DNA of 64,000 bases from a virus (IMGVR_UViG_3300028833_000087:1-64000); one strand, 5' to 3'. Numbered from the stretch's first letter, positions 11,475 through 58,915 are shown. Notes: generated by a model not told the origin, from the sequence alone. A program made the numbers and translations.

Positions 11475-11533
11475 AAATATGCTGAACTATAATTATATAT
11501 TATAGATATGATACTTATAGTTTCAGCATATTT
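11475..11533 (+). promoter_or_regulatory. class-1 promoter (11491-11510) enclosed by an ~18-bp inverted repeat
   Basis: AAATATGCTGAACTATAA ... TTATAGTTTCAGCATATTT. Confidence 0.65.
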
Positions 11534-33300: not shown

Positions 33301-33957
33301 TGGGATACTATTTTAATCTTATAAATGATTGGTTTGGTAAAAATAAATTTAAAATTTCGTTTTATAAAAGAACTTCTGTTATGATTAAACCAGGACTTAC
33401 AGTCCTGGTTGGATGTAATGGTATTGGCAAGACAACTTTTCTTCAACAATTAGAATGTGATCTTAAAGAAAAGAAAGAGAAATATATATTTTATAATAAT
33501 CTTTTAGATGGTGGAAACAATGCAAGACAAGCTGCATTAAATAGAGATGATATAGAATTTGTTATGACTTCAGCTGTATCTAGTGAAGGAGAAAATATAC
33601 AGCTTAATATTGGTAGGCTTGCTGGAAGAATTGGATATCTAATACATAATAAATTGGAGCAAAAAGATAAAAAAAATATTTATATTGCTCGATGCAGTTG
33701 ATTCTGGATTAAGTATAGATTATATAGATGAATTAAAAGAAAAACTGTTTCAATTTATAATAGATGATTGTAAGAAAAAAGGTATAGATATATATTTTGT
33801 AGTATCTGCTAATTCATATGAGATGGCTAGAGAATCAGATTGTTTTGATGTATATGAAGGCAAGTATAAAAAGTTTAAAGATTATGAAGAATATAGAGAG
33901 TTTATCTTAGAAAGAAGAAAAATAAAAGAAATGAGGTATGGTGATGAAATTGATTAG
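33300..33957 (+). pseudogene. ABC-type ATPase frameshifted at A8 run (33669-33676)
   Basis: Walker A GCNGIGKTT and SSEGE in frame 0; Walker B/D-loop IFILLDAVDSGLS in +1 frame. Confidence 0.75.
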
Positions 33958-34873
33958 TTACGAATCTTCGTTAGAAAGATCAGATCACATGTTTAAGAAT
34001 ACATTAATAAAAATTTTACTTAATGGATCAAAGGATATTAATCCTAGACCTAAATATGCAGATGGCACACCTGCTCATACAATAAGCATTAATGGTGTTG
34101 TAATGAAGTATGATTTATCTAAGGGAGAATTTCCTTTAATTTCATTAAGACCTATAGCATATAAGTCTGCTATTAAAGAGATTTTATGGATTTATCAAGA
34201 CCAGACATCTGATCTTAATATATTAAGAGATAAGTATGGAGTTACTTGGTGGGATGAATGGGCAGTTCCCGATCCTGTATCTCCTAATGGATTGATGAAA
34301 ACTAGTTCTTCTATAGGATCCTGTTATGGTCATACCGTTAAGAGATATGATATGATGAATAAAATTCTTGATGGATTGAAGAATGATCCTGATTCAAGAA
34401 GACATATTATAAATCTTTGGCAGGAAGAAGAATTTAAAGAACCTCATGGATTAAAACCTTGTGCTTTATATACTCAGTATATTGTAAGACATAATAAGAA
34501 TGAAGAGACAGGAGAGAATACAGATTATCTTGATGCTATTCTTATGCTTAGATCTTCAGATTTTATTATGGCAGGTACAATTAATGCAGTTCAGTATGCT
34601 GTATTATTATGCTTAGTTGCTAGGCATTGTGGTTATGAACCTGGTGAGTTAACTGTAATGTATAATAACTGCCAGATTTATGACAGGCATATAGAAGCTG
34701 CTAAAGAAATGGTTAATAATAGAAAAACTGTACATGGTAATCCCAAAGTGGTATTAAATCCTGATAAGACAAATTTCTATGATTTTACAATAGATGATAT
34801 TACTATTGAAGGATATCCTATTAAAACTATAAAAGATCAGAATCCTCAGTTTAATTTAGATATTGGTATTTAA
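33944..34873 (+). CDS. thyA: thymidylate synthase
   Basis: WDEW, YG, PDSRRHI, LKPC, RSSD, N of INAVQY, IYDRH. Confidence 0.92.
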   Translation: MKLISYESSLERSDHMFKNTLIKILLNGSKDINPRPKYADGTPAHTISINGVVMKYDLSKGEFPLISLRPIAYKSAIKEILWIYQDQTSDLNILRDKYGVTWWDEWAVPDPVSPNGLMKTSSSIGSCYGHTVKRYDMMNKILDGLKNDPDSRRHIINLWQEEEFKEPHGLKPCALYTQYIVRHNKNEETGENTDYLDAILMLRSSDFIMAGTINAVQYAVLLCLVARHCGYEPGELTVMYNNCQIYDRHIEAAKEMVNNRKTVHGNPKVVLNPDKTNFYDFTIDDITIEGYPIKTIKDQNPQFNLDIGI

Positions 34874-35682: not shown

Positions 35683-36565
35683 TTTTAAAGAAAATAAAAT
35701 TATAATAAAGAAATCTGATAAATTTGTAATAAATAATCTTATGCCTGTAGGATTTAGAGAACAGGAAAAGAATAATTTTATTTTTCTTTTTTTAGCTAAT
35801 CAAGATTTTGATGATACCAATATATATTTACAGTTGTTCTTTTCTGCTTCAAATCAGTTTGAATATGATTCTATAAAAAGGCATCCTAATTATATAAAGA
35901 ATTATAAAAATAATCCGGATTCTCTTGATATGTATAAAAAGATGATATCTAATATAAATAAAGATAATTTATATATTACAGATTTTTATATGACAAGAAA
36001 TCCGGATTTCCCGTTATATTATAATTCTTATGCTTATAAAGTCATAAATGATACTGATATTGAGAAGATGAATATATTTATTCCAAGGAATACTTTTGTA
36101 AAATTGAAGTGTTTATTGGGAAATTATAATATATTATCACCATTGCTTCCTACATCTTTAATGTATAAATTAAATATACAGAATATAAAATTTTCTCTTG
36201 TTAGCAGAATAAAGAATATTGGATCTACAATGGTTAGGCACAATGAAATTGATTATATAGATACTCATTATGTAATAAGAGCCGATAATAAAATCTACGC
36301 TATAAATTATAGATCCAAACCAAAACCTCATTTTCTTCCAATGAATATAATGGGACAAGATGATTTTTCTAAATATAAAAATGATTATTATTTAGAATAT
36401 ATATTTACATTTGAAGATAAAGTATATATTATATATCCTGAAGAAAATGATAATAAAGTGATTCTTATAATTGACAAGGATCAAATAAATAATACAAATT
36501 TTATAAATCCATATAATACGATTTACAAGGAGGAAAAGAGAAATGAGAGCACTGAAAATCAATGA
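35660..36565 (+). CDS. hypothetical protein
   Basis: 301-aa ORF. Confidence 0.75.
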   Translation: MEYMKIADFKENKIIIKKSDKFVINNLMPVGFREQEKNNFIFLFLANQDFDDTNIYLQLFFSASNQFEYDSIKRHPNYIKNYKNNPDSLDMYKKMISNINKDNLYITDFYMTRNPDFPLYYNSYAYKVINDTDIEKMNIFIPRNTFVKLKCLLGNYNILSPLLPTSLMYKLNIQNIKFSLVSRIKNIGSTMVRHNEIDYIDTHYVIRADNKIYAINYRSKPKPHFLPMNIMGQDDFSKYKNDYYLEYIFTFEDKVYIIYPEENDNKVILIIDKDQINNTNFINPYNTIYKEEKRNESTENQ

Positions 36566-37550
36566 CATGTTAAAGCATGATAGTACGATGCTTTATAATC
36601 AGAATTATTATGATAATAAGGAAAAATCTTCTGATACTGAAGAGAAACAGATTGCTGGATTAAATATACCTTCTGATCTTGATGTAAATAAATTTATTAA
36701 ATCTGATGATGATAAAATTATTAAAAGTATTACACCTTTGACTTTATATAATTATAAAGTATCATATCATGATTATGTGCAATTATCTTATTTAGTAAAA
36801 AATGCTACCGGAAAAATATTTATTATTTCTACAATATATGATGCTGTATATGAAGGGGATGATAAAATTTTAGATTTTATTAAAAATCATGTATCATTTT
36901 ATGATGATAAACAATATATAGATAATAAATCCAGGGAGCTTGTTAATAAAACATTAATAAATACATTACCTAATTTTTATTTTGATGGAAATATTGATTT
37001 TGTTGGCGAAAATACATTTTCTATAAATGCAGTTGTAGGTGACGGTATCTATGAGAATGAGGTACAATTTACATTCGATATTGCTATTGCAAATACTATT
37101 AAATTTACTCAGGTTTATATTAGTGAATGTACTTTAAATAATCATGATATTGTATTATGTAATATTCATGGCTCTAATGATACTGAAATGAATTTGTTTA
37201 TAGTGGATAAGGTATTAGATATTATTAATATTGCCACTGTGAATGAACAAAAGACTGCTATATCTATAATGCTTAAAGTTGCTGATAAAGAAGGCAATGA
37301 ATCATTTGTATTATTCTTATGCAATTATGTAAATAATAAAATTCTTAGCAAAGTTAATAGTACACTTGATGATATTTCTAATATGTATAATAATAACGAG
37401 GATTATTGGTTAGCTGAATTCTTCTATAGTACAAAAATAGGAGATGATGGTTGTGTAATTTATTCTACTAAGAATAACAAGTGCAAATATACAACCTTTA
37501 TATTCAATAAAGAATCTGTAGATCAAATTGAAGTATTATTAAATAAATAA
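36543..37550 (+). CDS. hypothetical protein
   Basis: 335-aa ORF, AAGGAGG RBS. Confidence 0.8.
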   Translation: MRALKINDMLKHDSTMLYNQNYYDNKEKSSDTEEKQIAGLNIPSDLDVNKFIKSDDDKIIKSITPLTLYNYKVSYHDYVQLSYLVKNATGKIFIISTIYDAVYEGDDKILDFIKNHVSFYDDKQYIDNKSRELVNKTLINTLPNFYFDGNIDFVGENTFSINAVVGDGIYENEVQFTFDIAIANTIKFTQVYISECTLNNHDIVLCNIHGSNDTEMNLFIVDKVLDIINIATVNEQKTAISIMLKVADKEGNESFVLFLCNYVNNKILSKVNSTLDDISNMYNNNEDYWLAEFFYSTKIGDDGCVIYSTKNNKCKYTTFIFNKESVDQIEVLLNK

Positions 37551-37688
37551 AAAAGAGTTTGGTCCTAGGGGATATGCCCCTAGGACCAAACTCTTTATGG
37601 TAAACACTAAATTTATTGCACTTTAGAAAGGTAGGTATTTCTGAATAAAATTTGCTCTAGGAGGTAACAAACTTTACAAGTGCAATTT
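37547..37688 (-). ncRNA. candidate sRNA with anti-SD loops
   Basis: class-2 motif at 37686-37698(-), 9-bp closing stem, two hairpins, terminator, no ORF. Confidence 0.5.
37552..37596. terminator. 20-bp perfect hairpin, bidirectional terminator
   Basis: AAAGAGTTTGGTCCTAGGGG-ATATG-CCCCTAGGACCAAACTCTTT; U-run on minus strand. Confidence 0.8.
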
Positions 37689-37738
37689 ATAATATAGTTA
37701 AACTTATAAATAAACTATTTATAAGGAGAGCTAAAATC

Positions 37739-38218
37739 ATGATTTATCCAGCTAAAATAAGCTCTTTTCTGAATAAACACCCATTATATGTTCCATATAA
37801 AATATGTAAACCAAATGAACGATTAAAATATTATAGAAGATATTGGTTTGAAGATAGACAGGAAATTATAAAGGTTTTAGAAATATATGAAATAGATGAC
37901 ATTGAATATTATTTTATAAAAATAGGGACAAGTTTATATGGATCAATACCTTATCCAGTAAAAGAAGCTACATATGAATTGGTGCCAGATACAAAAGATT
38001 TATTTTCAAGAGATAATATTATAGGAGATAATAATTATTATACAGGAGCAGAAATAAAATTTTGGTTCTTTTTACATAAAGAGATTTTAAGAAAATATAG
38101 TAAAGATATAGTATCTTTTATAGATCCAGATAGTAAAAATGTATTAAATGATAATATATATTATAAACTAGAATACTATAAAGAATCAATAAAAATAAAT
38201 AAAAAGAATATCCCCTGA
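37739..38218 (+). CDS. hypothetical protein
   Basis: 159 aa, AAGGAG RBS. Confidence 0.75.
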   Translation: MIYPAKISSFLNKHPLYVPYKICKPNERLKYYRRYWFEDRQEIIKVLEIYEIDDIEYYFIKIGTSLYGSIPYPVKEATYELVPDTKDLFSRDNIIGDNNYYTGAEIKFWFFLHKEILRKYSKDIVSFIDPDSKNVLNDNIYYKLEYYKESIKINKKNIP

Positions 38219-38243
38219 GGCATAAACCTCAGGGGATATTCTT
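38204..38243. terminator. bidirectional terminator
   Basis: 17-bp perfect stem. Confidence 0.8.
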
Positions 38244-38279
38244 CAATTAGGAGAAAATATATAAACAATGAAAACAACC

Positions 38280-38894
38280 TTAGCTCATATCGTCCGGATT
38301 GTATTTGTATCTCTCACTAGCAATAACAATCTTGTTAGCACGACATACAATACTATAGGACAGCTTCGGATATTTACCAGGTTCATCCTTTGCATAAGAA
38401 ACAGTAGTTGCAAAATAGCAAGGATAGTATGCAACTAATTCTGCAAGTAATTTAATTTCATCTGTATTCAGATCTTCATCCTGTCTATCTTCATCGTTAA
38501 GAATATGAAGAATCTCAAGCAGTCTATCAGCCTGCTCTTTAGGAAGATCTATATCTGATCTTACAAAAATATACGTTGTATATTCCTTGTCTTCATTAAA
38601 CCAAGCCAAACGACTCTTGGTAAAATATTCAGAAAGCAACGGAATAGATGTTAATGATACAGGTCTAGAATCCAGACATTTTCTTACCACAGTAATATTT
38701 TGATTATTCAGTAATGAATCAAGACGATCTGGATCTACAGTAAAAGCTAAGTCTCTAGATGCTTTGTCATTTCTCTTAGCAGATTTTTCAATTGCAAGCT
38801 TGATATCATTGTAGTCAATAGTATACGGACGTACATTACCATGCTTGTCATTACGCGGTGTGGACTGCTGCCCATCAGTGTTAGGATTAGCCAT
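38280..38894 (-). CDS. hypothetical protein
   Basis: 204 aa, AAGGAG RBS; ACA-N6-TAAT at 38957-38969. Confidence 0.8.
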   Translation of the reverse strand: MANPNTDGQQSTPRNDKHGNVRPYTIDYNDIKLAIEKSAKRNDKASRDLAFTVDPDRLDSLLNNQNITVVRKCLDSRPVSLTSIPLLSEYFTKSRLAWFNEDKEYTTYIFVRSDIDLPKEQADRLLEILHILNDEDRQDEDLNTDEIKLLAELVAYYPCYFATTVSYAKDEPGKYPKLSYSIVCRANKIVIASERYKYNPDDMS

Positions 38895-41664: not shown

Positions 41665-41684
41665 AATTATATAATATAAGTATG
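41665..41684 (+). promoter_or_regulatory. class-1 (putative early) phage promoter
   Basis: AATTATATAATATAAGTATG. Confidence 0.7.
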
Positions 41685-41812
41685 ATAATGAGTGTTTCAT
41701 CATTTTCACTCGTTATTAATCAATCATCTTATCCATTTTAGGGGAGATCGGTAGCCTCCCTAATAAAGGCCGAAATAAAGCAGAGTTCTCAAGCCCCTCT
41801 GCTTTATTTTTT
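41684..41812 (+). ncRNA. candidate three-hairpin sRNA
   Basis: promoter directly upstream, three hairpins, last one a terminator with T-run; no RBS-led ORF. Confidence 0.55.
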
Positions 41813-41849
41813 CTTCAGACCCACATTTTATTAATCGGAGGTGATTATA

Positions 41850-57942: not shown

Positions 57943-58118
57943 TAAAAAATAAAAAGTCCCGGGAATTATTCATTCCCGGGGGCAACAAAATGAGTGTAAA
58001 GTATATAGAATTCGTGATGGTTTGTGTGCTATCTGGGGGATAAGCGTTGTATGTATAGTTTAATATTTTCAGGGGTGGGTTATTAAACTATTTTGTAACG
58101 AATCTATATACTTTACAC
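57943..58118 (-). ncRNA. candidate structured RNA (sRNA or gmk leader)
   Basis: 21-bp closing stem, two inner hairpins with C-rich loops, terminator 57958-57980. Confidence 0.6.
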
Positions 58119-58123
58119 ATATG

Positions 58124-58915
58124 TTATTCATTACTGTAAAATATTATTGGTATCTCTAGTTCTTCTTTTTTATTATCTTCTATCATTGGAAGCATATAAT
58201 TATTACTCTTTAATACATCTATTCTATTATGCATATCTTGGTTAATATTAGTTATTTCCGGCAATCTATAGTTTTCATTTTTAATATCCACATTGACTTT
58301 ATTATAATTCAAAATATCATTATTTAATAACTCATTAGATTGTTTTGCTGTATAATTTTCTATTCTCTCTAAAACATCTATCTGTTCATCTGTAATAAAT
58401 GGACGATAGTATGTAACGAATAGGTCATATCTTCCTAAAACTGTATTTATAGGAATAAACAATCTATGAGCATGTACCAATTCATGAACTGTCTTAGATA
58501 AAGGAATAAGTCCTATCATATTTTTATAATGCAAAGACATTATTTCTTTAGCAACCATCCATACAGATACATTTTCATTATAATAACAGCGTTTCTTATA
58601 AACTATATTTGCTATATCATCTAATGAAAATGGATAATGATGTATCTCTATGCGGATATCAAATCCTTCAGAATTACTTACTCCTTCTATGAAACTATCT
58701 TTATTCATTCCATATTTATCTCTGATAAAGTTTATATATCTTCTATATTCAAAAGACTTTCTTACAACTTGTTTTATAGTAAGTATATATTTATTAAATT
58801 CTTTATCATCATCAAGATTAAATGGATTTACATTTTCTATTTCAGGTACATCTTCTAAAGCTATATAATTTTGTAAATTATGATGCTGAGCTTGTATAGC
58901 ATCAGGATCTATCAT
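58124..58915 (-). CDS. HNH-like nuclease-fold protein, paralogue of 56073-56807
   Basis: IEIHH...LSKTVHELVH. Confidence 0.55.
   Translation of the reverse strand: MIDPDAIQAQHHNLQNYIALEDVPEIENVNPFNLDDDKEFNKYILTIKQVVRKSFEYRRYINFIRDKYGMNKDSFIEGVSNSEGFDIRIEIHHYPFSLDDIANIVYKKRCYYNENVSVWMVAKEIMSLHYKNMIGLIPLSKTVHELVHAHRLFIPINTVLGRYDLFVTYYRPFITDEQIDVLERIENYTAKQSNELLNNDILNYNKVNVDIKNENYRLPEITNINQDMHNRIDVLKSNNYMLPMIEDNKKEELEIPIIFYSNE

Follow-up and report, generated by a model that had tools for sequence, protein, structure and literature searches.

Does the minus strand of a short intergenic gap in a giant-phage genome encode a small RNA (sRNA), and, if so, could that RNA act on translation through loops that resemble the 3′ end of 16S ribosomal RNA? 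The question is raised by a locus in the IMG/VR virus record IMGVR_UViG_3300028833_000087, which is 121 kb long and is called G000 where coordinates of the complete record are given. Its first 64 kb constitute the window, i.e. the whole stretch of DNA analysed here. The element sits in a 188-bp gap between two plus-strand genes with unassigned function (36543-37550 and 37739-38218). The original prediction described positions 37547-37698 as a candidate minus-strand sRNA that mimics the 16S anti-Shine-Dalgarno (anti-SD) tail twice and would occlude ribosome binding sites (RBSs). We find the presence of an independent sRNA unit probable and well supported. Such a unit, acting by base pairing with RBSs, is the reading favoured overall, and it is held tentatively, at slightly less than even confidence.

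Direct reading of the minus strand between 37547 and 37698 recovered all features that had been listed for it. The unit opens with a late-type promoter-like motif, AACT-ATATTA-TAA (37687-37699, minus strand), which places the predicted RNA start at A37688, 2 nt before the closing stem of a three-way junction (37615-37686). The closing stem has 9 bp and is formed by AUUGCACUU (37686-37678) with AAGUGCAAU (37623-37615). It encloses hairpin 1, in which 37677-37666 pair with 37656-37645 around the loop ACCUCCUAG (37665-37657), and the 5-bp hairpin 2, made of AGAAA (37642-37638) and UUUCU (37629-37625) around the loop UACCUACC (37637-37630). A linker of 18 nt (37597-37614), the UAAAUUUAGUGUUUACCAUA region, is unpaired in the fold and leads from the junction to an intrinsic terminator (37543-37596). 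The terminator is comprised of a GC-rich hairpin of 20 bp (37552-37596) followed by TTTATTTATT; the U-run (37543-37551) shares positions with the stop codon of the plus-strand gene upstream. The distance from the predicted start to the U-run is 134 nt, and the predicted RNA length is about 140 nt. No open reading frame (ORF) of at least 30 amino acids was found in 37551-37738; the longest minus-strand frame with a start codon has 15 codons and is not preceded by a Shine-Dalgarno (SD) sequence. The stems, the terminator and the lack of an ORF are thus as originally described.

Several features assign the element to the minus strand. Hairpin 1 includes three G.U pairs among its 12 pairs (two had been counted before), and these are specific to the minus strand because they become A/C mismatches on the plus strand; the strand bias proposed earlier holds, with a corrected number. 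Minimum-energy and centroid predictions for the minus strand both give the three-way junction. For the 81-nt core without the terminator, the z score is -4.88 on the minus strand, where none of 200 shuffled sequences folded as well, compared with -2.57 on the plus strand. The plus-strand fold loses hairpin 1, and its z score lies between -0.7 and -1.25 when flanks are included. The terminator was called by a terminator scan on the minus strand only, and no other terminator hairpin of the 121-kb record is as stable (-32.2 kcal/mol). Within 10 nt past the hairpin there are 8 T on the minus strand, in contrast to 2 T on the plus strand.

The G+C content of the window is about 29%. An ORF at 13835-16060 matches RNA_pol_Rpb2_6 and represents a beta-like fragment of a multisubunit RNA polymerase, which in this one subunit examined is 28-29% identical to its counterparts in Bacillus phages AR9 and PBS1 and in Staphylococcus jumbo phages. 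Judged by these sequence features, the window derives from an uncultured low-GC, AR9/PBS1-like jumbo phage of a low-GC host. In AR9, the early promoter consensus is AAATATATATTAT-N6-G, and the late consensus is AACA-N6-TA/G, with transcription starting at that A/G (PMC5312081). Upstream regions of the present phage contain two recurring motifs, TTATATATTAT-N6-G (early type) and AAC[AT]-N6-TAA (late type); both resemble the AR9 consensus of their class, and the early one is sharply defined and very close to it. Three sequence features of a small late-class unit of the AR9 kind are found here: an AR9/phiKZ-type multisubunit RNA polymerase in the phage, a motif of the AACA-N6-TA/G type at the 5′ edge, in a variant with T at position 4, and a hairpin with a U-run without an internal ORF. 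The start at A37688 is predicted because the AR9 late rule places it there.

Motif statistics agree with a late-type assignment. Within 80 nt upstream of genes of this phage, AAC[AT]-N6-TAA occurs 16 times in sense and 2 times in antisense orientation, with 1.8 occurrences expected, and most intergenic copies lie 25-45 nt ahead of a start codon. Sense enrichment upstream of genes was observed in all six genomes studied, comprising this phage and the five relatives presented below (for example, sense, antisense and expected numbers in this comparison are 16, 1 and 1.4 in the present phage, 28, 4 and 2.4 in G001, and 35, 6 and 3.0 in G004). A weight matrix was built from 15 gene-proximal late sites; the element's site scores 8.7 bits, compared with a leave-one-out mean of 6.4, and falls inside the range of gene-proximal sites. 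A second late-type motif, AACT-TATAAA-TAA (37701-37713, plus strand), is located back to back with the first one, 1 nt apart, and belongs to gene 37739-38218; it lies 38 nt upstream of the ATG of this gene and is followed by the SD sequence AAGGAGAG. The original prediction had named the motif as ACT-ATATTA-TAAA. It is present, but has to be extended to AACT-N6-TAA, and its class is AR9-late-like, i.e. the class enriched upstream of genes. Among the late-type motifs of the present phage, AACT outnumbers AACA.

Two other promoter types were considered and rejected. The internal TATATTAT of the motif scores about -13 bits on the early matrix, while real early sites score 13-31 bits. Sigma-70 promoter matches do not exceed the frequency seen in shuffled sequence, and transcription in AR9-like phages relies on polymerases of the phage. 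Matches to the early matrix are nearly all intergenic and aimed at genes, and nearly all of the top ones are on the plus strand; examples are at 11494, 13492, 39813 and 58944 in the window, and at 68153, 69162, 71899 and 81535 of G000.

Relatives of the locus were found by a profile search of IMG/VR with an alignment of the 159-residue protein family encoded by the downstream gene. The search retrieved six loci from five distinct phages, with 25-39% identity in this protein, and two of the five genomes are near complete (201 and 225 kb). When the IMG/VR search was repeated with a broader protein alignment, it led to these six loci again. Gene order is kept throughout, and consists of a plus-strand gene for 300-400 amino acids, a gap of 230-380 nt, the homologue of the 159-residue gene, and a minus-strand gene for about 200 amino acids. 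The minus strand of every syntenic gap carries AAC[AT]-N6-TAA and, starting within 1-3 nt of the predicted RNA start, a 5′ hairpin; it also has a pyrimidine-rich segment that is left open, and a strong hairpin with a U-run on the minus side. The predicted start is separated from the U-run by 115, 112, 112 and 113 nt in four relatives, and by 215 nt in the fifth. With the present phage included, the terminator has its U-run on the minus side in 6/6 phages, and folding favours the minus over the plus strand in 5/6. Gene-free units that extend from a late motif to a terminator number only 2-5 per genome, so five coincidences at one locus and on one strand would be very unlikely (roughly estimated at ~1e-9).

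Additional information came from a closer homologue, P0009, residing on an 848-bp contig from ENA. Its protein is 88% identical to the product of gene 37739 and has a 25-residue N-terminal extension. The start of P0009 was probably called too far upstream, because the extension is an in-frame reading of 75 nt of non-coding upstream sequence, and it can thus be compared with the element triplet by triplet. The comparison shows no net insertion or deletion. The block 37682-37717, including both promoter motifs and the outer closing stem, is unchanged in 10 of 12 triplets. No close relatives were found by DNA or by single protein in INPHARED, IMG/VR and GTDB genomes, and none by the loop pattern. 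A metagenome scan yielded only one contig of 1 kb, which ends at the start of the homologue of the upstream gene.

Because the motif, hairpin, open stretch and terminator recur in the same gap and on the same strand of five phages, we consider an independent minus-strand sRNA unit of about 140 nt at this locus to be well supported and probable. The promoter class, the orientation of the terminator and the syntenic recurrence in distant relatives all agree with the original prediction in this respect.

The similarity to 16S ribosomal RNA was assessed by string comparison, using the generally established 16S sequence. On this basis, ACCUCCU in loop 1 equals the anti-SD core over exactly 7 nt, and ACCUACCUUUCUA equals the Firmicute 16S 3′ end with one inserted A. 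Only UACCUACC is exposed in this second 16S-like string, because its UUUCU lies in a stem. When paired with 148 initiation regions of the phage, loop 1 reached a mean energy of -10.4 kcal/mol, compared with -6.5 for coding-sequence interiors and -7.4 ± 0.7 for shuffled loops. Loop 2 gave a mean of -7.25, compared with -6.1 ± 0.8 for shuffled loops, which is unconvincing. Of the proposed double mimicry of the anti-SD tail, anti-SD character is supported for loop 1, whose predicted pairing with RBSs is well above controls, and is not supported for loop 2. With a probe complementary to the 16S tail, pairing was significant for the present unit (p = 0.01) and for the unit L007 of one relative (p = 0.03), where the string is GCCUCCA; pooled over six units, p was about 0.009.

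First genes behind late-type motifs have stronger SD sequences than those behind early-type motifs (anti-SD pairing of -11.2 and -9.4 kcal/mol, respectively, p = 0.011, for 27 first genes of transcription units in the whole record). Late-promoter first genes also pair better with loop 1 than early-promoter ones (-13.2 vs -9.9, p = 0.018), and a role in early shut-off is disfavoured for this reason. In view of the late-type promoter and the stronger pairing of late-promoter genes, the early-to-late shut-off suggested originally is not supported.

To this computed picture of the unit, its strand and fold, its conserved position and the SD complementarity of loop 1, a mechanism can be attached in a provisional form. 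By analogy with AR9, the non-virion RNA polymerase of the phage would start at A37688 from the AR9-late-type promoter AACT-N6-TAA. The RNA would fold immediately into the 5′ three-way junction and would end about 140 nt on, at the 20-bp hairpin and U-run. The 5′ stem may shield the RNA from 5′ exonucleases; stabilisation by a 5′ stem is established for RNAs sensitive to 5′ exonucleases in Firmicutes. Pairing in trans with purine-rich SD regions of phage or host mRNAs would then take place through the exposed loop ACCUCCU, perhaps joined by the weaker loop CCUACC. Such pairing would hinder binding of the 30S subunit, in the manner of sRNAs with C-rich or anti-SD loops. Taken by itself, occlusion of RBSs in trans as the mode of action is a tentative proposal, which we regard as possible and short of probable.

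A number of observations weigh against this mechanism. The promoter is assigned by motif statistics and by analogy with AR9, and its fourth base is T, not A. Preservation of the loops had been chosen beforehand as a check on the prediction, and the outcome was unfavourable: just two of the six phages retain CCUCC, and in the remaining units weaker CCUCU, CUUCC or CUUCUU tracts take its place. In four of the six units, pairing with the 16S complement is not significant individually. The six RNA bodies are not alignable, and the promoter alone aligns; the short words CUACC, UUGCAC and CUUGGU shared among the units are suggestive at most. In P0009, all six triplets across the 5′ arm of hairpin 1 differ, in an extension that covers one arm only; part of the substitutions are compatible with the pairing (U to C opposite G), and others would need compensation on the other arm. 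To the unconvincing pairing of loop 2 with initiation regions are added the results of target searches. The initiation region of gene 37739 is not favoured as a conserved target (Fisher p = 0.68), and a comparative search across 55 orthogroups shared by the six genomes gave a best p of 0.007, not significant after correction. Exact matches of at least 12 nt were also inspected as targets, but five were found and about eight are expected, and they were taken as chance; the 12-nt matches include the RBS of gene 46404 and codons 10-13 of gene 37739.

Among alternative explanations, the one which survives best, although we hold it to be unlikely, accepts the unit as real and denies its RNA a target in trans. 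The strong hairpin would stop both the upstream plus-strand operon and the short minus transcript, and the latter would be a by-product of divergent promoters or a cis-antisense partner. In the cis-antisense form, the RNA would be the full complement of plus-strand read-through from the operon, sharing the terminator hairpin with the operon's 3′ end, and cutting of the duplex would uncouple gene 37739 from the upstream operon. The back-to-back arrangement of the late-type motifs is in accord with this explanation, as is the failure to find a conserved target in trans. Plus-strand read-through is plausible, considering the paucity of T past the hairpin on that strand, and what is conserved among the phages is position and length, not sequence. 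However, an insulator alone could do without a promoter and without a structured domain at the 5′ end whose length is conserved, and the 5′ hairpin and open pyrimidine stretch recur in the relatives. In addition, the minus-specific G.U pairs and the folding asymmetry indicate selection on the RNA itself.

A protein-binding or decoy function is improbable in our estimation. In this case the 16S-tail-like loops would not pair with mRNA but would titrate a recogniser of the 16S 3′ end or of pyrimidine-rich RNA. This factor could be an initiation factor or ribosomal protein, an RNA-binding protein of the phage, or a nuclease or toxin of the host that is directed against the anti-SD region. It would explain why the anti-SD core in loop 1 is exact and why loop 2 with its stem reproduces the Firmicute 16S end so closely, and it accommodates both the lack of a specific mRNA target and the recurrence of open pyrimidine-rich stretches despite sequence drift. 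On the other hand, the 16S-like strings themselves are not kept: beyond the limited occurrence of CCUCC, nothing in the relatives resembles UUUCUA. Furthermore, the locus offers no candidate for such a binding protein, and both flanking proteins are without a family. A related proposal, a clade-wide late mimic of the 16S 3′ tail that is not gene-specific and either competes with the 30S subunit for strong SD sequences or titrates a reader of the anti-SD, has only a slim chance of being correct.

Little credence can be given to the explanation without any functional RNA, in which a chance fold and an AT-rich motif happen to lie near the terminator of the upstream gene, and CCUCC is the reverse complement of relic SD-like strings. 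In its favour, no more than seven bases of the promoter motif are fixed, and the DNA is AT-rich; orphan GGAGG strings are fairly common between genes (12 in the record), and an excess of C over G on the minus strand is predicted by the local GC skew. Against this stand the recurrence, in five distant phages, of a rare combination of motif and terminator at one locus and on one strand, and the z score of the core fold (-4.9). Neither of the plus-strand GGAGG-like strings has a start codon at SD distance.

Very unlikely, too, is an element of the plus strand, i.e. a structured leader or stand-by site ahead of gene 37739, in which GGAGG and GGUAGG loops would be accessible to ribosomes or a CsrA-like protein. 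The original prediction mentioned plus-strand GGA loops as its alternative reading, and AGGAGG and AAAGGUAGG indeed occur in the mirror-image loops. However, the plus-strand fold is weak, relatives' plus strands fold far worse than their minus strands (plus folding is poor in 5/6 phages), and the late-type motif of gene 37739 itself is downstream of the element, with the terminator at the 5′ side of the latter. CsrB/RsmZ sponges combine many looped GGA with a stable fold; here there is one AGGA and one GGUAGG loop, a single GGA loop in comparison with the many of CsrA sponges, and with flanks the plus strand folds no better than shuffled sequences. The least credible explanation is a micro-peptide, encoded by the 15-codon TTG..TAA frame here and by 13-25-codon frames in the relatives: short frames are present in all units, those of two relatives are hydrophobic and the unit L004 has an AUG 6 nt after AGGU (all frames read by eye), yet no SD precedes the frame here or in most relatives, the peptides share neither similarity nor length, and the present frame crosses paired stems.

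Base pairing of a minus-strand sRNA with RBSs, the favoured reading, invites comparison with described RNAs. A cmscan of the window gave no Rfam matches at gathering thresholds, and in a cmscan of 37400-37850, RsaE was not listed at E <= 10, while the best matches (E ~0.01) were driven by the terminator. Like RoxS/RsaE (RF01820) and Staphylococcus aureus RNAIII, the element is a small structured RNA by prediction, and its unpaired loops are rich in pyrimidines or C; it also shares with them the 5′ stem, the intrinsic terminator and the association with a low-GC Gram-positive host. In RoxS/RsaE and RNAIII, C-rich loops pair with G-rich SD regions and block initiation. Unlike them, the element has CCUCC and not CCCC/UCCC in its loop, shows no sequence or structure match, and resides in a jumbo phage of virulent type, where it is apparently served by a promoter of the phage RNA polymerase. 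The several unpaired CCCC/UCCC regions characteristic of RoxS are absent, as no CCC run exists in ACCUCCUAG or UACCUACC. The likeness to RNAIII and RoxS drawn in the original prediction does not extend to family membership.

The alpha-r14/cuckoo sRNAs of alphaproteobacteria (NfeR1, CcsR1-4) have several hairpins, each exposing an anti-SD motif, and occlusion of RBSs has been shown for them experimentally; the motif is the ultraconserved CCUCCUCCC in three hairpins (PMC10746234). The anti-SD motif in a hairpin loop is common to them and to the element, and in cuckoo sRNAs function resides in the loops, with stems that are free to vary. The element differs in having no repeated hairpins exposing CCUCCUCCC; it shows one ACCUCCU loop and one imperfect CCUACC loop, its motif is not kept in relatives, and it is phage-borne and associated with another phylum. 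The element belongs to none of the compared families with C-rich or anti-SD loops: it matches no Rfam model, its loops carry other motifs, and its own motif varies among the relatives.

Comparable, too, are the short intergenic sRNAs, each running from a start to a terminator, that were observed by ONT-cappable-seq in the Pseudomonas jumbo phages 201phi2-1 and phiKZ (PMC11512511). The common features are a gene-free unit of < 250 nt from promoter to terminator and a position conserved with regard to homologous genes among related giant phages. The element differs from them in being predicted from sequence, in belonging to the AR9-like branch, and in being unrelated in sequence. Some AR9 late promoters drive non-mRNA (antisense) transcripts, and the AR9 transcription study describes no sRNA of such a kind (PMC5312081). 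The present unit resembles AR9 late units in the promoter-like motif and its spacing, in a start at A after T, and in termination at a strong hairpin. It differs in the fourth motif base, which is A or T in this clade, and in the extension of the motif to TAA, and the phage encodes ThyA. In the DNA of AR9 and PBS1, thymine is replaced by uracil; the thymidylate synthase gene is located here at 33938-34873, in a phage with AR9/PBS1-like polymerase and promoters.

Other candidate units were noticed in the record. A second similar unit (57947-58125, minus strand) starts with AACA-TATGTG-TAA and has a closing stem of about 20 bp, a linker, a terminator, and two inner hairpins with the C-rich loops ACCCACCCCUGAAAA and CCCCA. 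It immediately precedes the SD and the ATG start codon (57925) of a gene called gmk in the original prediction, and may be an sRNA or a leader/attenuator. The third gene-free late-motif unit (G000 65776-65865, minus strand), about 1.8 kb past the end of the window, is about 79 nt long and combines the motif AACT-ATAAAG-TAA with a small hairpin at the 5′ end and a strong terminator, upstream of a large minus-strand gene (60904-65718). At 41668-41815 (plus strand), about 126 nt free of ORFs separate an early-type motif (21 bits on the early matrix) from a terminator downstream, and this segment represents a candidate early-class small RNA. At G000 65884-65920 and 91977-92010 (plus strand), early-type motifs are immediately followed by GAAAGGAGGTTAA, i.e. 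by orphan strong SD sequences at predicted 5′ ends, with no ATG, GTG or TTG at SD distance from them.

The upstream neighbour of the element (36543-37550, plus strand) encodes 335 amino acids, and its stop codon abuts the terminator; six homologues are 57-70% identical to it. The downstream neighbour (37739-38218, plus strand) encodes the 159-residue protein that served as the marker for syntenic relatives in the five IMG/VR phages. No Pfam or PHROG family was found for the 335-residue protein, and no family for the 159-residue one. A protein identical to one of this record is found on a 236-kb contig. A 19-bp minus-oriented terminator (38197-38244) for gene 38280-38894 overlaps the final codons of the convergent gene 37739-38218, and a perfect early-type site TATATATTAT-N6-G (38155, plus strand) lies within the latter gene, just ahead of this terminator. 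Gyrase, a family B polymerase and an endolysin are also encoded in the record, along with ThyA. A scan of the window found no genes for transfer RNA or transfer-messenger RNA.

Regulatory RNAs of phages are barely charted. In the AR9/PBS1-like branch of jumbo phages, transcription is performed by two RNA polymerases of the phage itself. A probable sRNA unit with a late-type promoter that keeps its place in six very divergent genomes suggests that riboregulators are a regular part of the programme of such phages, and the locus offers a compact natural cassette of promoter, stabilising stem and terminator for this clade. If the CCUCC loop acts on RBSs, the RNA would be a phage counterpart of the control exerted by RoxS/RsaE, RNAIII and NfeR1, and would provide a handle on how giant phages, which carry no ribosomes, tune translation. 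A mimic of the 16S tail, if such it is, would re-weight translation globally in the late phase of giant-phage infection.

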